A DNA stretch of 64,000 nt from an uncultured Desulfosarcina sp. (GTDB taxonomy: Bacteria; Desulfobacterota; Desulfobacteria; Desulfobacterales; Desulfosarcinaceae). Below, one piece after another: positions 19,672 through 49,355 of this stretch. The position numbers were made by a program, and so were the translations under genes. The notes beneath the pieces were generated by a model. The model had not been told where the DNA came from, ran no database searches, and saw only the letters and a program-made list of their open reading frames with translations. The DNA is taken from positions 1,376,001 through 1,440,000 of the forward strand of contig CAXXWQ010000004.1 in NCBI GenBank assembly GCA_963674945.2, in the 5' to 3' direction. Every line of letters begins with the position of its first letter. Positions within the stretch are counted from its first letter, which is position 1.

Positions 19672-21252
19672 TTAAAATTCGAGTGGGGTGACTGTTTTTA
19701 CCAGAGAAAGGTGTCGCATCTCCTCGACCACATTTTCGGGAATGGGGGTATCGGTGGTCAGGAAAATGATGTTTCTGTCTCCATCCTCCTCTTGGCCCAC
19801 CTGCATCCGGCCGATATTGATGTTGTACCGGCCCAAAGTGGTACCGATCTCTCCAATGGAGCCTGGCTTGTCGATATTTTGAATCAACGCCATGTGACCG
19901 TGGGGAATCATCTCCAGCCGGAACTTATCGATCTTGACGATCCGTGGTTCCTTCTTTCCAAAAATTGTTCCGGAAACGACGCTTTCCATCTCGGTGGTAA
20001 TGGCGCGGACGGTAATCTGGTTCACGTAATAATCCGACTCGGCACTGCTCGTTTCCGTCACCTTGATGCCCCGCTGCTGGGCCAGGACCTGGGCGTTGAC
20101 ATAGTTGACGTCGTCTTTGACCACCGGGGTCAGAATTCCTTTGAGCACCGCCGTCGACACGGGAGTCAGGTCCAGATCCTCAAAATCGCCGTGAAACTCG
20201 ACGATCACTTCCTTGATGGGGCCCTTGACCAGCTGCGCCTGTAAGCAACCCATACGATCGGCCAGCGTCAGGTAGGGACCGATTCTTTCCAGTACTTCTC
20301 CGGTAACCGATGGCATATTCACCGCATTGGTGACGGTACCAACGGTCAGAAGATCGATAATCTGCCGGGCAATGGCCACGGCCACATTGGTCTGCGCCTC
20401 CTTTGTGGAAGCACCCAAATGGGGAGTACAAATCACCCGTTCATGGGTGATCAGGGGGGTCAGCCCCGGCGGTTCAGTCTCGAACACATCCAGGGCCGCC
20501 CCTGCCACCTTACCCGAAACCAGTGCATCGTAAAGCGCCGCCTCGTTGACAATGCCGCCCCGGGCACAATTGATCACCATCACGCCGGGCTTCATTTTTT
20601 CAAATGCAGCCGCATCGAGCATCCCGATGGTATTTTTCAGCTTGGGAACATGAACGGAAATATAGTCGGCGCGAGCGTAGAGGTCGTTTAATTCGACGCA
20701 CTCGAATCCGGCTTTTTGAATCATATCGGGTGTGACGAAAGGATCGTGAATGATCACGTTCATCTTCAGCCCACGGGCACGGTCAGCCACAATGGCTCCG
20801 ATCTTTCCATACCCGATGATACCCAGCACCTTGTTGAAAAGCTCCCGCCCCTGTAGCTTTTTCTTCTCCCAACGGCCATCTCGCAGGGAAGCGGTTCCCA
20901 TGGGAATATTGCGGGTCAAGGCCAGCATCATGGCGATGGCGTGTTCCGCCGTTGTGACCACATTGCCGGTAGGCGTGTTCATTACCACGACGCCGTGACA
21001 CGTGGCTGCCGGGATGTCTACATTGTCGAGACCAATGCCGGCGCGACCGACCACCTTGAGACGCTTCGCCGCTTGTAAAAGATCTTCGGACACCTTGGTG
21101 GCGCTGCGAATCACCAAGGCGTCATAGTCTCCGATGATCGCTTTCAGGGCCTCCGGTGCAAGACCCGTTTTTACGTCAACCTCAATTCCCTGGGCATCCT
21201 GGAACATTTGGATGCCATCCTCACCCAGATTGTCACTTACCAGCACCTTCAT
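19672..21252 (-). CDS. serA: D-3-phosphoglycerate dehydrogenase (ASB and ACT domains)
   Basis: GRAGIGLDNVD, GYGKIG, NCARGG, TPHLGAST, DKPG ACT motif. Confidence 0.97.
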   Translation of the reverse strand: MKVLVSDNLGEDGIQMFQDAQGIEVDVKTGLAPEALKAIIGDYDALVIRSATKVSEDLLQAAKRLKVVGRAGIGLDNVDIPAATCHGVVVMNTPTGNVVTTAEHAIAMMLALTRNIPMGTASLRDGRWEKKKLQGRELFNKVLGIIGYGKIGAIVADRARGLKMNVIIHDPFVTPDMIQKAGFECVELNDLYARADYISVHVPKLKNTIGMLDAAAFEKMKPGVMVINCARGGIVNEAALYDALVSGKVAGAALDVFETEPPGLTPLITHERVICTPHLGASTKEAQTNVAVAIARQIIDLLTVGTVTNAVNMPSVTGEVLERIGPYLTLADRMGCLQAQLVKGPIKEVIVEFHGDFEDLDLTPVSTAVLKGILTPVVKDDVNYVNAQVLAQQRGIKVTETSSAESDYYVNQITVRAITTEMESVVSGTIFGKKEPRIVKIDKFRLEMIPHGHMALIQNIDKPGSIGEIGTTLGRYNINIGRMQVGQEEDGDRNIIFLTTDTPIPENVVEEMRHLSLVKTVTPLEF

Positions 21253-41463: not shown

Positions 41464-41529
41464 TCGTATCTCCGGAGTTCACGCCATATGATTTCGTTTG
41501 TCAACGATCGATCCGGCTTCACCACGCCC

Positions 41530-42435
41530 ATGTCGATTTTTTATCTGATCGCCATTGTTATCCTTTTCCTCATTTCGAGTCTGATGGGATGCATGATGCC
41601 GCAAAAAGCGCTGACAATCAAGGAGAATGAAATGCAATTGACGGAAGATGCCATTTACCGGTCGGACACCGCTTCCGTCGTACCCCGCGAGGAAATGTTT
41701 CATGACCTGGCCCAATTCCGAATCATCTATGTGGGCGAGCAGCACACCAACCCCTCCCACCATGCCAATCAACTGGCGGTGATCAAAGCCATTTTCGAAA
41801 ATGACCCGAAGCTGACCATCGGTATGGAAATGTTCGACCACACCTACCAGCAGGTTTTGGATCAATGGATTGCCGGTGGTTTGGATGAAACCGCTTTTCT
41901 GGAAAAAAGCCATTGGTATGCCAACTGGCGCTTCGATTTCGATCTGTACCGGGGAATATTGGAATATGCGAAGGAAAATCGAATTCGGATCGTGGCCCTC
42001 AACCTGCCATTTCACATCCCCGGGAAAATCAGTACCGGCGGCATCGCAAGCCTCCAAAAGGAGGATCGCCGGCATCTGCCGAAAACAGTGAACCTCGATG
42101 ATGCCGAGCATCGGGCCTATGTGGAAAAGATATTTTCCATGCACGCCCTTCCGGGACGGGAAAACTTCGAACATTTTTATGAGGCCCAATGCGTCTGGGA
42201 AGATGCCATGGCCGAGGCCGTGGCGGAGAACCTGAGTGCCGGGAAAATGGTGGTGATCATCGGAAACGGCCACATCATCCGAAAATTCGGCGTGCCCAAT
42301 CGCGTCTTTTCCCGCAACCACCTGCCTTTCAGGACCATCTATATGGAACCGGTGGGCAACGAGATCGACGCGGACGACGGCGACTACATCTGGGTCACCC
42401 CAAAGACACCCATGCCCCGAATGCCCATGCGGTAG
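41530..42435 (+). CDS. ChaN family (heme-binding/uptake) lipoprotein
   Basis: Lipobox LMGC, YVGEQH...HH..QL, GMEMF, ALN, AQCVWEDAMA, GNGH. Start may be 41488. Confidence 0.85.
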   Translation: MSIFYLIAIVILFLISSLMGCMMPQKALTIKENEMQLTEDAIYRSDTASVVPREEMFHDLAQFRIIYVGEQHTNPSHHANQLAVIKAIFENDPKLTIGMEMFDHTYQQVLDQWIAGGLDETAFLEKSHWYANWRFDFDLYRGILEYAKENRIRIVALNLPFHIPGKISTGGIASLQKEDRRHLPKTVNLDDAEHRAYVEKIFSMHALPGRENFEHFYEAQCVWEDAMAEAVAENLSAGKMVVIIGNGHIIRKFGVPNRVFSRNHLPFRTIYMEPVGNEIDADDGDYIWVTPKTPMPRMPMR

Positions 42436-42477
42436 TTGTTTGACGGATTTCAGCAATCCCTCAGCCGATCCCAATGA

Positions 42478-42648
42478 AGTTTTTCCGTGTGCCCGGTCTT
42501 CGGCCTGCCCCCGGATGACGGCCGGCAGATCATCGACCGCCTCAAACAGACGTTTTTATCCCACTGGCAGTCGGTCTATGCCCGCTTCGGCGTATCAAAA
42601 AAAGACTTCCCCTTCCTGAAAAAAGCCCTCGTTACCCATCTGGTCTGA
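42478..42648 (+). pseudogene. C-terminal fragment resembling HipA-family toxin
   Basis: Reads SFSVCPVFGLPPDDGRQIIDRLKQTFLSHWQSVYARFGVSKKDF...; a TGA immediately upstream (42475) means there is no N-terminus. Confidence 0.5.
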
Positions 42649-42791
42649 CACATGGATATCCGTCGTTTTCGGCATTGCTGGATTATTGCAGGATTATTGT
42701 AGTAATCCAAAGGACTTACTGTTGGCTGTGGGTTGCATAACAATACCAAATACCCATCGGGCGTTGGTAGTGATACACTCTAATAATTTGA

Positions 42792-42980
42792 CTATAGTTT
42801 AGAAGGTATCTTAGGTTGATTGCCCGCTATTTCAACAATGGTTTCCAGGCGGACAATCCTTCTGTCATGGGATTGCAACTCTTTGGAAATTTCAGACAGC
42901 AACATCCCGGCGCGTTCAACCTTATCGGTTAACAGCATGACCTCTTTTACCGCCGCCATTACATCGGCAAAAGTACTCAA
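42792..42980 (-). CDS. Small coiled-coil hypothetical protein
   Basis: 62 aa, TTG start 1 nt after the upstream stop, SD GGGGAG inside the upstream gene. Contains HDRRIVRLET. Confidence 0.7.
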   Translation of the reverse strand: MSTFADVMAAVKEVMLLTDKVERAGMLLSEISKELQSHDRRIVRLETIVEIAGNQPKIPSKL

Positions 42981-42981
42981 A

Positions 42982-43248
42982 TCAACTCCCCCTTAATTGA
43001 TGTAACGCTTTTTCCGCATCGGCGATGCCTTTGTTTAAGGATTTCTTTGCCCTTTTGGCCGCCTGTTGAAGCTCGGCCGTTAAAAGCGCCAACATCTTCT
43101 CCTCATCATTTACCGGTCTTTTTTCGCAACGCTGACGGACAAGTTGAGAAACGCTAATGCCTTCCTTTTTGGCTTCTTTATGCAAATATGCCTTGAAGTC
43201 AGGCGTTCCTAAAATTGTTATGCGTTCCGTTTTAACCGATGTTTGCAT
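42982..43248 (-). CDS. RHH/CopG-like DNA-binding protein with coiled-coil tail
   Basis: KTERITI beta strand, then LHKEAKKEGISVSQLVR, matching the RHH pattern. SD AAGGGG. Confidence 0.72.
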   Translation of the reverse strand: MQTSVKTERITILGTPDFKAYLHKEAKKEGISVSQLVRQRCEKRPVNDEEKMLALLTAELQQAAKRAKKSLNKGIADAEKALHQLRGS

Positions 43249-43271
43249 GATCGACCCCTTTTTTATTCATA

Positions 43272-43314
43272 TTATCATTATCATGATAATATGATAAGGT
43301 GAAGTCGACGTCAA
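43272..43314 (-). promoter_or_regulatory. Sigma70-type promoter overlapped by a repeated operator
   Basis: Minus strand TTGACG-17nt-TATTAT. Four TTATCAT/ATGATAA heptamers (43272-43297) include the perfect palindrome ATTATCATGATAAT. Confidence 0.7.
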
Positions 43315-43342: not shown

Positions 43343-45823
43343 TTATCCGCACTTGGTGAACCCGCAGAAATGACAGGTCATACACCCTTCCTCGAAGCTG
43401 ATGGTCTGGCCGCACTCAGGACAGACCTCCCCCATAAGGCTGTTGCCGCGCTTCTTTTTCTTATCTTCCATGAGATAGCGCTTTTCCAGAACGCGTGCGA
43501 TGGCATCGGGTATGGAAAGTACGAGCCCCCCATTCTGAAAAACGGGATGTTCGCCGCCGATCCCTTTCAACTGCTCCACGACCTTGTCCACCGTCACACC
43601 GGATCGAAAGGCCAGGGAGACCAACCGACCGATGGCCTCGGTTTTGGCCGTGGTGGAGCGGCCCGACTTTCCGATGGTGGCGAAAACCTCGAAGGGCTTG
43701 CCGTGATACTCCGTCACCGTCACATAAAGCTGACCCAATCCGGTTTTCACCCTTGTCGTAAAGCCATCTAACGTGTCGGGCCGTTTTCGGACCGCAGTCA
43801 TGAAGGCGTCTTCTTTCCCCTGGGTCGTCGATATGGACAGCACCTGATTCTCCTTGCTGCCATCCCGGTAGATGGTGACCCCCTTACAGCCAAGTTCCCA
43901 GGCCAAGTCGTATATCTTCCGGACATCTTCCACCGTGGTGTCGTGTGCCAGATTAACGGTCTTGGACACGGCGTTGTCCGTGTATTTCTGAAAGGCCGCC
44001 TGCATTCGAAGATGCCACTCCGGGGTAATATCGTGTGCCGTGACAAATACCCCTTTGACCGTTTCGGGTATTTCGGCCATATTTGCGATGGAGCCCGTGG
44101 TCGCCACGGCCTCCATGAGGGCTTCGGAATAGATCCCCTCTTTGCGCACTGCGGCCTCGAAATGGGGATTGACCTCCATTAGCTTGTCATTGTCCATGAC
44201 GGTTCGAATGAAACTTAACGCAAACAGCGGTTCGATACCGGACGAACAATTGCTGATGATGCTCAAGGTGCCGGTGGGGGCGATGGTGGTGGTTGTGGCG
44301 TTGCGGTATGCGGCTTTTTCATCACCGGCAAAACGGCTTTGGCCGTAGTTGGGAAATACACCGCGCTTCCGTGCGAGGGCGAGGGAGGCCTGGTGGGACT
44401 CTTCCTGGATGAAAGCCATGACCTTCTCGGCGACGGCGATTGCCTCGTCGCTGTTGTAGGGGATGGACAGCTGGAACAGAAGATCGGCGAATCCCATCAC
44501 CCCCAATCCGATCTTACGATTCCCCTTGACCATCCGGTCGATGGCGGCAAGGGGATAACGGGACATGTCGATGGTGTTATCCAGGAAGCGAACCGCGGTC
44601 CAGACGGTATTTTTCAGTTCATCGAAATCGATCAACGCATACCCCTTTTCCTGGACCACGAACCTGGACAGATTGATGGATCCGAGGTTGCACGCCTCCA
44701 TGGGCAAAAGCGGCTGTTCGCCACACGGATTGGTACTCTCGATCTCTCCCAGCGCCGGAGTAGGGTTATCCCGGTTGAGGCGATCGAGAAAGACGATGCC
44801 CGGATCCCCGCTTTTCCAGGCGTGTTCGGTCAGGGCCGCATATACCTCGTTTGCATTCAAGGTACCCACGTGCTGCTGATCCCTGGGATCCACCAGGTCG
44901 TAGCTTTCCCCGTTTTCGACGGCTTTCATGAAAGTGTCGGTGATTCCCACGGAGATATTGAAATTATTCAACGATGCCGTATCGGCCTTGCAGTGGATGA
45001 ACTCCATGATATCCGGATGATCCACGCGTAGAATCGCCATGTTGGCACCCCTTCGGGTCCCCCCCTGCTTGACCTGTTCGGTGGCCGTATTAAAGATCTT
45101 CATGAAAGAAACCGGACCCGATGCGATACCGCCGGTTGTTCCCACCATGGAATTCTTCGGCCTCAGGCGGGAAAAGGAAAAACCGGTGCCACCTCCGGAT
45201 TTATGTATGATGGCGGCATTTTTCAGTGAGGAAAAAATCCCTTCCATGCTGTCTTCCACGGGCAGCACGAAGCACGCGGCAAGCTGTCCCAACCGTCTGC
45301 CGGCATTCATCAGTGTGGGCGAGTTTGGCAGAAATTTGAATTGTGTCATCAGTGAATAAAACTGCCCGGCAACTTCTTGGACATCCGCCTTTTCATCGTA
45401 TTGCAGCTCTGCCTGGGCGATGTGGTTGGCCACCCGATGAAACATCTGTACCGGCGTTTCCTTCAATCGGCCGTCCACGTCTTTTTTCAGGTAGCGTCTC
45501 TCCAGAACGGTCTTGGCATTGGTGGAAAGATGCAGACCGTTTTTGATGAACATATCCTTGGTCAGCCGCACGGAGGTTTTGGTGTCCAGGCCGTACTCGG
45601 AAAGTTTGGCCTTAATCAACTCATCCACCATGGGGCCGGTAACGTGACCGAGATCCATCCGTTCGATGGCCGATCGAATGAAATGATAAATCTCTTTGGC
45701 CTGTTTTTCATTCACGGCATTGGCGCCGATCAAGCTTTTACAAAAGGCATGATCATCCCAAACATAGGTGTTCAGGTCCACGTTTCCGTCATGGGTGATG
45801 ATGATTTTCTCTTTGGCGGCCAT
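43343..45823 (-). CDS. nrdJ: Class II (adenosylcobalamin-dependent) ribonucleotide reductase
   Basis: FLPNSPTLMNAG, LAACFV, TNPCGEQ, ACNLGS, TIAPTGT, then a C-terminal TSCPD-like domain and zinc ribbon. Confidence 0.95.
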   Translation of the reverse strand: MAAKEKIIITHDGNVDLNTYVWDDHAFCKSLIGANAVNEKQAKEIYHFIRSAIERMDLGHVTGPMVDELIKAKLSEYGLDTKTSVRLTKDMFIKNGLHLSTNAKTVLERRYLKKDVDGRLKETPVQMFHRVANHIAQAELQYDEKADVQEVAGQFYSLMTQFKFLPNSPTLMNAGRRLGQLAACFVLPVEDSMEGIFSSLKNAAIIHKSGGGTGFSFSRLRPKNSMVGTTGGIASGPVSFMKIFNTATEQVKQGGTRRGANMAILRVDHPDIMEFIHCKADTASLNNFNISVGITDTFMKAVENGESYDLVDPRDQQHVGTLNANEVYAALTEHAWKSGDPGIVFLDRLNRDNPTPALGEIESTNPCGEQPLLPMEACNLGSINLSRFVVQEKGYALIDFDELKNTVWTAVRFLDNTIDMSRYPLAAIDRMVKGNRKIGLGVMGFADLLFQLSIPYNSDEAIAVAEKVMAFIQEESHQASLALARKRGVFPNYGQSRFAGDEKAAYRNATTTTIAPTGTLSIISNCSSGIEPLFALSFIRTVMDNDKLMEVNPHFEAAVRKEGIYSEALMEAVATTGSIANMAEIPETVKGVFVTAHDITPEWHLRMQAAFQKYTDNAVSKTVNLAHDTTVEDVRKIYDLAWELGCKGVTIYRDGSKENQVLSISTTQGKEDAFMTAVRKRPDTLDGFTTRVKTGLGQLYVTVTEYHGKPFEVFATIGKSGRSTTAKTEAIGRLVSLAFRSGVTVDKVVEQLKGIGGEHPVFQNGGLVLSIPDAIARVLEKRYLMEDKKKKRGNSLMGEVCPECGQTISFEEGCMTCHFCGFTKCG

Positions 45824-46048
45824 GGATGCAAATTCTCCGTTGGTTGATGTCAATGGTAAAGACAGGTGTTTCGTATTCGAGACCCTACCTATCGATTCAA
45901 CGACCACCCGGAAAGCGGGTGGCTTGAAATAACGCCGATGGACCGGATTTCCAAAAGCACGTCAGTGCTGTAACGTTCGGGTTGTAACCGGAGGCAAAGC
46001 ACCCGGTTTGAATACTGCGAATAATGGAGGTTGAAGCCTTAAAATCCC

Positions 46049-46345: not shown

Positions 46346-48634
46346 TTGGAACAAAATTCGTCGCAACCAATCCGTATTAACCAACTTTTTGCGCCTGAGG
46401 AGAGCCCCGTGATTGAAAAGATCAAAAAGCGTGACAATCGCATTGTCGAGTTTGACCCGTCCAAAATCACCGCCGCCATCGCAAAGGCCGGTCACGCCTC
46501 AAAGGAATTCGGGGAGCGGGAAGCCAAAAAGTTGACCCTTCGGGTCCTGACCCTCGCCCACGAGCTTCGCCTTGGGCCCACGCCTGAGGTGGAAGAGATA
46601 CAGGACATCGTGGAACGGGTGCTGCTGGACTCTCCTTATTACAAAACAGCCAAAGCCTACATCATCTACAGGGAGCAACATGCCCAGATCCGACGCATCG
46701 CCACAGAGGCCCAGGTGGATCTGGTGGACCACTATATCCGAAAACTCGATTGGAAAATCAAAGAAAACAGCAATATGTGCTACTCCCTGCAGGGACTCAA
46801 CAACTACATCTCCTCTGACGTCACGGCGGAGTACTGGCTCAACAAGATCTATCCGCCGGAAATCCGGCGAGCTCATGCCGACGGCGATCTTCACATCCAC
46901 GACCTGAGCCTGTTGTCGGTCTACTGTGTGGGATGGGATCTCACCGATCTTTTGCACAACGGATTCAAGGGTGTCGAGGGAAAGGTAGAGAGTGCCCCTC
47001 CCAAACACCTGCGGTCGGCCCTGGGCCAGATCGTCAACTTCTTCTACACGCTCCAGGGAGAGGCGGCTGGAGCCCAGGCCCTGTCCAATTTCGACACCTT
47101 GCTGGCACCCTTTATCAGATACGACAAACTCAACTATACCAAAGTCAAACAGGCCCTTCAGGAATTCGTCTTCAACATCAACATCCCGACGCGAGTGGGC
47201 TTTCAAACACCGTTTACCAACATTACCATGGACCTCTACGTGCCCGACATGCTGAAGGACAATCCGGTGATCATCGGTGGCAGGGAGATCGATGCCACCT
47301 ACGGTGAATTCCAAGAGGAAATGGATCTTCTGAACCGTGCATTCGCCGAGGTAATGATCGAAGGAGACGCCAAGGGGCGCGTTTTCACCTTTCCCATTCC
47401 CACATACAACATCACCAAGGATTTCGATTGGGACAACCCCAACCTGGACCCCATCTGGCGGATGACCGGGAAATACGGCATCCCCTATTTTTCCAACTTC
47501 GTCAATTCGGACATGTCACCGGAAGACGCCCGCAGCATGTGTTGTCGCCTTCGGTTGGATAACCGTGAACTGCTCAAACGCGGCGGCGGTCTTTTCGGTG
47601 CCAATCCCCTCACCGGTTCCATCGGCGTCGTCACCATCAACCTGCCCCGAATCGGCCACGTGTCCAAGGACGAAACCGAATTCTTCGATCATCTTCGCAT
47701 GCGGGTCGACCTGGCAATCGAGAGCCTGGCTATCAAACGAAAGGTATTGGAACAATTCACCACCAAAAACCTGTATCCCTATTCCAAATTTTACCTGCGC
47801 TCCATAAAGGAGCGATCCGGTGTTTTCTGGAAGAACCATTTTTCCACCATCGGCATCCTCGGCATGAACGAAGCCTGCCTGAACTTTTTGGGAGAGGAAA
47901 TCACGACGGCAAAGGGCCAGGCATTTGCCGTGAAGGTAATGGATGCCCTGCGCAGTATTCTCGCAGAGATGCAGGACCAAACGGGGGATATTTTCAATCT
48001 GGAGGCCACGCCGGCCGAAGGAACATCCTACCGTTTGGCCATGATCGACAAGAAACGTTATCCGGAAATAGTCTGTGCCAACGAAAAAGACGTCCAGATG
48101 GGTGCGGCACCCTACTATACCAACTCCACCCAGTTGCCGGTGAATCACACGGACGATATCTTCGAGACCCTCATGCTGCAGGACAATCTGCAAACCAAGT
48201 ATACCGGCGGTACGGTATTGCACCTGTTTTTGGGAGAACAGGTCTCCGACATCGAGACGGTGAAGGCCCTGGTTCGAAAAGTCTCCGCCAACTATCGACT
48301 CCCCTATTTTACCCTTACCCCCACCTTTTCGGTTTGTCCCTCCCATGGCTATCTCAGCGGAGAACAGACCCGTTGCGCCAAATGCGACCGTGAAACGGAA
48401 GTGTACAGTCGCGTGGTCGGTTACCTTCGGCCGGTAAAACAGTGGAACGACGGGAAACAGGCTGAATACCAGCGGAGAAAAACCTTCCGGGTGGAAAGGA
48501 TCACCGCGGGTGTATCCGCAGCCACGCCCATGAAGATCGGAAAGGGGAAGAAAAAAACCGTGGGTGTGTCACTGCATACGATGGACGCTTCCACCGATTT
48601 GGATGATATGAGCATCCGCCTCAAAACAGTATAG
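46346..48634 (+). CDS. nrdD: Class III anaerobic ribonucleoside-triphosphate reductase
   Basis: ATP cone (IKKRD...FD), HIHDL, SMCCRL, ATPAEG, zinc CxxH/CxxC, glycyl-radical YSRVVGYLRPV. Start 46346 or 46409. Confidence 0.96.
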   Translation: MEQNSSQPIRINQLFAPEESPVIEKIKKRDNRIVEFDPSKITAAIAKAGHASKEFGEREAKKLTLRVLTLAHELRLGPTPEVEEIQDIVERVLLDSPYYKTAKAYIIYREQHAQIRRIATEAQVDLVDHYIRKLDWKIKENSNMCYSLQGLNNYISSDVTAEYWLNKIYPPEIRRAHADGDLHIHDLSLLSVYCVGWDLTDLLHNGFKGVEGKVESAPPKHLRSALGQIVNFFYTLQGEAAGAQALSNFDTLLAPFIRYDKLNYTKVKQALQEFVFNINIPTRVGFQTPFTNITMDLYVPDMLKDNPVIIGGREIDATYGEFQEEMDLLNRAFAEVMIEGDAKGRVFTFPIPTYNITKDFDWDNPNLDPIWRMTGKYGIPYFSNFVNSDMSPEDARSMCCRLRLDNRELLKRGGGLFGANPLTGSIGVVTINLPRIGHVSKDETEFFDHLRMRVDLAIESLAIKRKVLEQFTTKNLYPYSKFYLRSIKERSGVFWKNHFSTIGILGMNEACLNFLGEEITTAKGQAFAVKVMDALRSILAEMQDQTGDIFNLEATPAEGTSYRLAMIDKKRYPEIVCANEKDVQMGAAPYYTNSTQLPVNHTDDIFETLMLQDNLQTKYTGGTVLHLFLGEQVSDIETVKALVRKVSANYRLPYFTLTPTFSVCPSHGYLSGEQTRCAKCDRETEVYSRVVGYLRPVKQWNDGKQAEYQRRKTFRVERITAGVSAATPMKIGKGKKKTVGVSLHTMDASTDLDDMSIRLKTV

Positions 48635-48653
48635 GGCTTTTTATCATATTTTG

Positions 48654-49355
48654 ATGCTTCTGGCCGGTTACCAAAAAAATTCCTTCATCGACTATCCCGG
48701 CAAGATCGCCTGCGTCTTGTTCACCACCGGGTGTAATTTCACCTGCCCCTATTGCCACAACCCGGCGCTCGCACGGGGCGAGTATCCCATGCGGATCGAA
48801 CCGGAGACGATCATGGCCTTTTTGCAGTCCCGCAAAGGACTGCTCGAGGGCGTGACCATTACCGGCGGCGAGCCAACACTGCATCGGGGGGATCTTCTCG
48901 ATTTGTGCAAATCCATCAAAGCCATGGGATACCCGGTGAAGCTGGACACGAACGGCAGCCGGCCCGAAGTGCTGGAAGCGCTGTTGGACCGACATCTGGT
49001 GGATTTTGTCGCCATGGACATCAAGGCACCGTTGGATGCCTACGGCCCTTTTTGCCCTGATCCGGATGTGGGCAAAAGGCTATCTGAAACCATCCGGCTC
49101 ATCCGCTCTTTTGCTCCGGCCTACGAATTTCGAACCACCTGCGTCGCCCCCTTCGTCGACGCCAAGGCAGTAAGAGTCATTTCCGAAACGATCAAGGGTG
49201 CAAAGCGGTACGTCCTTCAACCCTTCAATGGCCGAGGCGTTTGCCTGGATCCGGAATTCGGCCGCCGTCACGACCCTGCCGTGGATGGAAAAACCATGGA
49301 AGAATGGAAGGCGTCAATTCTCCCGAACGTTCCAAATTGTACGATCCGCGGTTAA
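48654..49355 (+). CDS. nrdG: Anaerobic RNR activating radical-SAM protein
   Basis: SFIDYPG, CNFTCPYCHN, TGGEPT, KLDTNG, EFRTT. Confidence 0.95.
   Translation: MLLAGYQKNSFIDYPGKIACVLFTTGCNFTCPYCHNPALARGEYPMRIEPETIMAFLQSRKGLLEGVTITGGEPTLHRGDLLDLCKSIKAMGYPVKLDTNGSRPEVLEALLDRHLVDFVAMDIKAPLDAYGPFCPDPDVGKRLSETIRLIRSFAPAYEFRTTCVAPFVDAKAVRVISETIKGAKRYVLQPFNGRGVCLDPEFGRRHDPAVDGKTMEEWKASILPNVPNCTIRG

Follow-up and report, generated by a model that had tools for sequence, protein, structure and literature searches.

Toxin-antitoxin (TA) systems of type II with ribbon-helix-helix (RHH) antitoxins, including AtaRT, KacAT, ParDE/CopA-SO, MazEF-mt9, VapBC and RelBE, are coupled operons in which the gene of the RHH regulator comes first. 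Among the known type II toxins, nucleases, transferases and membrane proteins predominate. Antitoxins are described in a passage of PMC10440598 as a DNA-binding domain with an independent neutralisation domain, and a section of PMC2701414 lists MazF and PIN toxins each with RHH or AbrB antitoxin domains. One helical toxin, toxFtsL (NetFlax D9), is portrayed in a further passage of PMC10440598 as blocking cell division via a leucine-zipper-like region. Here we describe a two-gene cassette that follows the organisation of these systems and whose second protein is predicted to be a short three-stranded coiled coil.

Results

An AT-rich cassette between nrdJ and chaN

The window analysed is a 64,000-nucleotide stretch of the genome of an uncultured Desulfosarcina sp. 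ORF1 (43248..42982, minus strand) encodes 88 aa from an ATG start to a TGA stop at 42984-42982. ORF2 (42980..42792, minus strand) encodes 62 aa from a TTG start and is separated from the TGA of ORF1 by a single T. These coordinates confirm a preliminary description of the locus, which had given reading frames of 88 and 62 aa with a 1-nt gap. Its view of an AT-richer operon holds as well: the GC content of the cassette is 43.0% as compared to 53.6% for the window, and GC3 is 45% and 49% for the two ORFs as compared to 67-68% in the flanking genes. The promoter that it had assigned to the pair, TTGACG-17-TATTAT, is present on the minus strand at 43314..43286 and is a sigma-70-type candidate (-35 TTGACG at 43314-43309, 17 nt, -10 TATTAT at 43291-43286); with 10 of 12 matches it is the top scorer among 5 sites in 1.2 kb. 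A TTGACA-like hexamer is seen by eye at a comparable position in many relatives.

According to Pfam, the cassette is flanked by the class II ribonucleotide reductase gene nrdJ (43343-45907, minus strand) and by a convergent ChaN-family gene, chaN (41488-42435, plus strand). Among 27 congeners with chaN, 24 have chaN and nrdJ adjacent without the cassette, with a gap of 37-445 bp versus 938 bp here by the same measure; in the other three nrdJ is not in view, and none of the 27 loci holds the cassette. Rfam gives no match inside the cassette, and its edges show neither terminal repeats nor a bounding duplication. The stretch of about 350 bp from the chaN stop to ORF2 (42436-42791), partly AT-rich, has no match in the rest of the genome or in the fetched loci and may have arrived together with the cassette. 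The class II reductase gene is divergent from two genes at 46346-48634 and 48651-49355, which we take to encode an anaerobic reductase of class III and the corresponding activase. A weak Rfam match to CRISPR-DR15 at 45894-45930, below the gathering score, is probably due to chance.

Distribution and neighbourhood

The nearest relative, from an uncultured Desulfosarcina sp., has proteins 90% and 87% identical to ORF1 and ORF2. The DNA common to both loci is 492 bp long and 85% identical, extends from the operator to the end of ORF2 and lies between unrelated flanks. Across 76 RHH loci (75 genomic and one viral) no neighbour recurs except among close kin, and no third gene is conserved with the cassette. 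The partner family is present in 8 of 30 congeners, 19 of 65 genomes of the family, 12 of 301 genomes of the order, at least 2 of 401 genomes of the phylum and, in another class, 26 of 400 genomes of Proteobacteria; the phylum matches L081 and L082 were rejected as unrelated coiled coils. On plasmids the partner gene is found in four genera (Acidithiobacillus, Paraburkholderia, Marinobacter and Xanthomonas), every time behind an RHH-like gene, and cultured carriers include Paraburkholderia phytofirmans PsJN, Acidithiobacillus caldus and Marinobacter nanhaiticus (plasmids). The cassette is a patchy lone insertion at scattered sites.

On the Marinobacter plasmid pD15-8W (L084:501-893) the upstream regulator is about 40 residues longer at its C-terminus, and a DUF1778/GNAT pair lies 2.6 kb off. 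The sole viral-contig copy (L078:1-710) is immediately followed by a gene that, by eye, we take to resemble a Phd/YefM antitoxin. A Pfam scan of neighbouring ORFs of at most 230 aa (97 near and 63 far, on 86 locus sides) revealed TA-type genes (MazF, PIN and HTH_3 antitoxin-like) near (within 1.4 kb) three loci and far (2.8-4.2 kb) from one or two. Such genes are at most slightly commoner close to the cassette than far from it, with no clear enrichment.

Pairing of the two genes and broken copies

Homologous pairs are the rule: the partner is found directly 3' of the RHH gene in 71 of the 76 loci by pattern, and in 72 counting L057, which was recognised by eye. The two genes overlap by 4 nt in 61 of the 71 paired loci, one of which (L049) is frameshifted. 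Elsewhere both genes are broken (L069), the RHH gene is broken with no partner in view (L070 and L074), or a slightly shortened ORF1 stands without partner (L061). Anchoring on the partner gave 63 distinct places from genome samples. Here 55 have a whole upstream regulator and six a tail remnant, one is at a contig edge and one holds a partner remnant.

Broken copies come mostly from metagenome assemblies, in which errors are possible. Whole ORF2 is kept beside a broken ORF1 at 6 of the 63 places (L079, L108, L117, L124, L138 and L143). Four of the six have lost the 5' region including the promoter; L108, with one premature stop, and the decayed L117 still have promoter-like DNA, and the genome of L124 carries a sister cassette. 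The converse, an ORF1 that is whole or nearly so but lacks a functional ORF2, occurred in three cases (L049, L061 and L239). This decay does not favour a strong toxin. Known TA systems include many orphan antitoxins and some orphan toxins too, as reported in a section of PMC7354431, so that the orphan ORF2 copies weaken the case for toxicity and do not exclude it.

ORF1 is a predicted RHH regulator with a long helical tail

ORF1 consists of an N-terminal RHH domain (residues 6-42, approximately) and a 40-residue C-terminal helix (48-87), and 361 homologues were found. It scores 26.9 bits on the NikA-like Pfam family PF21983 (cut-off 27) and matches a PHROG Arc-like repressor with an E-value of 1.6e-4, and an atlas search with the homologue P0161 gave NikA-like/RHH clusters. 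The predicted model has helices at 16-29, 33-41 and 48-87. The monomer forms no strand, as expected, since the RHH sheet is made by two chains. Foldseek returned no row at E≤0.001; the rows listed are nearly all RHH proteins, with AtaR, Arc, KacA, MazE-mt9 and CopG as the best, and CopG overlays the model at 1.3 Å over 35 residues. The near-cut-off NikA-like score, these RHH-dominated rows and weak Pfam matches to HicB and RHH_1 all agree with the RHH protein of the preliminary description. In the model the tail is a helix of high confidence and not a disordered neutraliser, a point against a TA role. In 13 disjoint pairs of type A (see below), dN/dS is 0.10 for the RHH part, 0.26 for the tail and 0.17 for ORF2, the last indicating purifying selection. 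ORF1 is a candidate antitoxin and autorepressor.

ORF2 is a predicted trimeric coiled coil

For ORF2, Pfam gave no match at E≤1, and NCBIfam, PHROGs and PADLOC gave weak matches only (E≥0.007) that assign it to no family. A profile of 58 rows retrieved 787 clusters at 50% identity, 136 of them at E≤1e-10; the best 150 of the 787 were inspected, and some of those with weaker scores may be coiled coils of no relation. Any one Pfam family matches at most six of 127 aligned members, the scattered weak matches including Trimer_CC (5), TolA_bind_tri (2) and SlyX (2). In an atlas search with the homologue P0024, 30 of 30 clusters lacked a Pfam annotation, and sequence searches of the PDB reached E-values of 0.053 and 0.058 at best, with generic helices. 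As had been noted for the window copy, PIN, RelE/ParE, MazF, HicA, Fic/Doc and GNAT domains are absent from ORF2 in Pfam and NCBIfam, as are BrnT, HEPN and RES. No named toxin domain appears among the matches listed for its 127 relatives, and ORF2 shows no known toxin fold or catalytic residue set.

The monomer model is a single helix (residues 3-54) with a mean pLDDT of 92. From residue 17 to 49, large hydrophobic residues occupy heptad positions a and d, and a second hydrophobic stripe, off this core, runs along positions 4, 8, 11 and 15. R41 and E46, at g and e, are the sole invariant residues in the 58-row alignment, which was gathered mostly via the RHH gene. The strict R-h-x-x-h-E motif is present in 117 of the 127 members, a set chosen by a motif-bearing profile, and the stretch HDRRIVRLET pointed out earlier contains it in the window copy. 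The motif specifies parallel trimers and turns up in some dimers too, according to a passage of PMC3653964. ORF2 thus carries, at the level of sequence, the signature of a parallel trimeric coiled coil (heptads plus R(g)-h(a)-x-x-h(d)-E(e)) and is predicted to be three-stranded. Residues 41-52 are common to all subtypes of the cassette and residues 2-40 are type-specific, the N-terminus of type C being offset by three residues. A 1:1 complex of ORF1 and ORF2 predicted with alignments scored 0.13 (mark 0.32), which weighs neither way, and covariation between tail and ORF2 in a small set of 83 pairs (about 56 effective) revealed no register-like pattern. ORF2 is a candidate effector (toxin) of an unnamed family.

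A palindromic operator candidate over the promoter

The operator candidate is a 28-bp palindrome (43267..43294) of the form 12-4-12, which spans the -10 hexamer and the likely start site. Its arms (43267-43278 and 43283-43294) are 100% complementary, and its core (43270-43291) consists of two 10-bp CATTATAATG-like boxes spaced 12 bp. Four heptamers had been described here as the operator. All of them are present, TTATCAT or ATGATAA occurring at 43272-43278, 43278-43284, 43283-43289 and 43291-43297, so that 26 bp hold 4 of the 13 copies in the window; as separate units they do not stand, since they overlap and form one perfect palindrome.

The two-box unit is conserved across genomes. Tolerating up to two mismatches per box, two CATTATAATG boxes 12 bp apart are found in 43 of 72 type-A upstream regions, in 0 of 43 regions of other types and in 1 of 3600 shuffles; binding by ORF1 is putative. 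With a type-A operator profile, the cassette's own site ranks first in the 7.08-Mb genome by a small margin (23.4 versus 22.1 for the runner-up). The runner-up (G000:C2:649244-649265), with one perfect and one poor box, could be a secondary site or due to chance. We dropped an interpretation of GATAATGATAAT as a Fur box, as relatives hold a 10-2-10 box pattern that varies with the regulator subtype.

Five subtypes and an exchanged DNA-binding domain

We sorted the 116 intact pairs into five types: A (73), B (14), C (17) and D (10), all four with RHH regulators, and E (2). Each of the five has its own upstream repeat; by eye these are GCACATGTGC palindromes in type B, TGTGTATG repeats in type C and TGTACAT/TGCACAT palindromes in type D. 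In type E an AbrB/MazE domain (PF04014, 30.2 bits, cut-off 24.7) replaces the RHH domain of the upstream gene. The partner follows this regulator at both loci at which type E pairing was checked (L126 and L148), and the swap counts as one event. Of 75 homologues of the type E regulator, 71 cover it nearly full length. A metagenome scan with the AbrB-type alignment yielded a single member of full length; 79 further loci were of the ordinary MazE-like kind and in every case lacked the partner, and a search of 78 other genomes across the order gave no further AbrB-type copy.

The tail of type E aligns with that of type C in hhalign at 93% over 42 columns (reversed control 0.2%). Tail profiles also link A with D (96%) and B with D (93%), with reversed controls of 0.5% and 21%; C links weakly to A, B or D (28-44%), and between A and E no direct link could be detected. 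In an ORF2 tree of 78 rows, with 35 type-A rows plus that of the window and without L083, the type changes 6 times versus 38 when shuffled, and the E partners group with C (99/96); this tree rests on few columns and its bootstrap is not fully settled. Because kin share type labels, co-evolution is not shown by the tree on its own. The partner follows the tail and not the DNA-binding domain: both the tail and the partners of type E group with type C.

Different types also meet in one genome: A and B (this genome, L022 and L069), A and C (L072) and A and D (L101). Near-identical copies of one type within a genome occur as well. The second cassette of this genome (L083, G000:C1, about 19757-20310, minus strand) is of type B with its own GCACATG palindrome, and its partner contains the R-h-x-x-h-E stretch twice. 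At L022:4306-5449, A and B stand back to back, at L101 D and then A are in tandem, and at L072:5001-6250 A is followed by C, the genes after these two cassettes presumably resembling an AbrB/MazF pair by eye.

Discussion

The reading towards which we lean, at somewhat better than an even chance, is a type II toxin-antitoxin-like module that belongs to an unnamed family and whose effector is a coiled coil without enzymatic activity. A coupled and conserved pair, a predicted DNA-binding regulator with a putative operator, and a patchy spread, the features that characterise type II systems, are all found. The anatomy also fits a modular antitoxin, the tail and partner being kept and the DNA-binding domain exchanged. 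We count the cassette as TA-like and do not file it as a member of the type II systems, because toxicity and neutralisation remain putative. Of the TA-like reading in the preliminary description, the conserved, coupled and mobile pair, the operator and the lack of a known toxin domain have stood, and the domain swap, out of reach of that description, adds a further TA-like trait; the four-heptamer parse has not stood, and neither a membrane-acting amphipathic helix nor a defence-island setting is supported.

In such a module, ORF1 dimers would bind the two boxes of the palindrome and repress their own promoter. Their C-terminal tail helices would pack on ORF2 trimers and hold ORF2 in check, with ORF2 residues 2-40, including the second stripe at 4/8/11/15, as the likely tail-binding surface; the matching of tail and partner types lends such a contact indirect support. 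Freed ORF2 would block a conserved cell target via its conserved C-terminal face, by binding and not by catalysis; residues 41-52, of which R44, T47 and E50 lie off the a/d core, probably serve as trimer trigger and as the surface that meets the target. For an output, which a self-regulating, cargo-free cassette needs if it is to be under selection, ORF2 is the sole candidate. The toxicity of ORF2, its neutralisation by ORF1 and the cell target belong to this proposal. A bolder form of it, to which we give a little less than even chances, is a widespread, unnamed TA superfamily. Its toxin would be a bare 60-residue trimeric coiled coil, with neither enzyme activity nor membrane span, sheathed in a helical bundle by long helices of the antitoxin; the superfamily would be divided into five or more insulated subtypes, each with an operator of its own, RHH and AbrB domains would be interchangeable, and the conserved C-terminal face would meet a host or phage target new to toxins.

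That whole ORF2 survives the loss of ORF1 would be accounted for by a conditional module of defence against phages or other mobile elements, in which ORF2 does no harm to the host at rest and acts solely on a protein from a phage or plasmid, for instance through the jamming of some coiled-coil assembly, while ORF1 sets its level. Purifying selection, patchy spread and plasmid carriage fit such a role, but no PADLOC family covers the cassette (one of 127 members has one weak match). No defence genes recur among the neighbours, a defence-island setting is not borne out, and only one viral contig carries a copy, with none in phage records. We regard this explanation as unlikely, if the most serious of the rivals. 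ORF2 might instead be a non-toxic structural co-repressor, its trimers linking RHH dimers on the two boxes of a small regulator with another output or none. ORF2 offers binding surfaces alone, a two-box operator suits cooperative binding, and orphan ORF2 copies are tolerated. Yet there is no conserved third gene and no clear regulon, the best operator site genome-wide being the cassette's own; a regulator of itself only gives no reason for dN/dS values of 0.1-0.26 or for spread across phyla, and residues 41-52 are kept although DNA-binding domains and operators differ by type. The chance of this reading is in our view small.

A membrane-active trimer would make use of the fixed N-terminus of ORF2, where position 2 is S, G, A or T in 124 of 127 members: on release, the N-terminal amphipathic helix would damage the membrane. 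A precedent is the BMFP protein YqiC, which forms a helical trimer and is active on membranes in vitro (PMC3107778). Residues 2-19, however, carry a mean net charge of -0.65 and are thus not cationic, only 5% of the 127 members pass the lipid-binding score, and there is no TM-like segment (maximum 19-residue hydropathy 1.29), which speaks against a membrane-acting amphipathic helix. BMFP is moreover absent among the matches listed for members (25 of 26 Pfam families), and we hold this mode of action to be improbable. The NikA-like top Pfam match of ORF1 and the plasmid copies could also be taken to mean that ORF1 is a NikA/MobC-type relaxosome or partition protein left from a mobile element, with ORF2 as a passenger. 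But neither a relaxase nor ParA lies beside the cassette in the window, where nrdJ and the ChaN-family gene are its flanks, and no neighbour recurs in the 76 loci, large neighbours elsewhere being annotated in part. The pairing persists even with the RHH domain replaced; fixed pairing and swap largely refute this last explanation, which we consider very improbable.

If the effector of the TA-like module is only a short coiled coil, it would add a new toxin architecture and probably a new target. The family comprises at least 136 clusters at 50% identity and escapes those TA and defence finders that work with profiles. Its subtypes are a ready set for studies of partner and operator specificity, and with both genes below 300 bp each and copies in cultured bacteria it is cheap to test. 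If ORF2 proves to be non-toxic, it stays of interest why selection maintains a cassette of two genes without cargo.

Comparison with known systems

The TA-like organisation is known; the effector family and the architecture are, judging from sequence comparison, uncatalogued. The literature and two NetFlax supplements contain no description of the cassette (subscription papers, bioRxiv supplements and TADB lie outside this scope, and a listing there is possible), and six RefSeq accessions of the family are absent from the full texts and the two supplements. To our knowledge, none of the short trimeric coiled-coil families (Trimer_CC, SlyX, TolA_bind_tri, BMFP/YqiC) partners a DNA-binding protein in a mobile operon. 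None of these families matches more than six of the 127 ORF2 members, while coronin Trimer_CC, SlyX, TolA_bind_tri and BMFP/YqiC share the same motif at g-a-d-e (PMC3653964). With the NikA-like, CopG and Arc repressors (PF21983, PF01402) the regulator has the N-terminal strand-helix-helix in common, whereas the cassette adds a C-terminal helix of 40 residues and a partner in a fixed place downstream, without adjacent relaxase or replicon.

The closest relation is to the type II systems with RHH antitoxins named at the outset. The regulator-first coupled operon and the RHH domain are the same, and so are the palindromic operator over the promoter, the patchy distribution and the carriage on plasmids. 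Here, however, the partner is a 60-aa single helix without a GNAT, PIN, RelE, MazF, HicA or Fic domain, the tail of the regulator is a long predicted helix, and toxicity of the cassette is putative. For a toxin acting through a helical region toxFtsL is a precedent, but its GAF domain, its TM helices and its pairing with Panacea set it apart, a comparison drawn from its description only. In combining the same partner with an RHH or an AbrB domain, the cassette resembles the MazF and PIN systems as listed in that section of PMC2701414.
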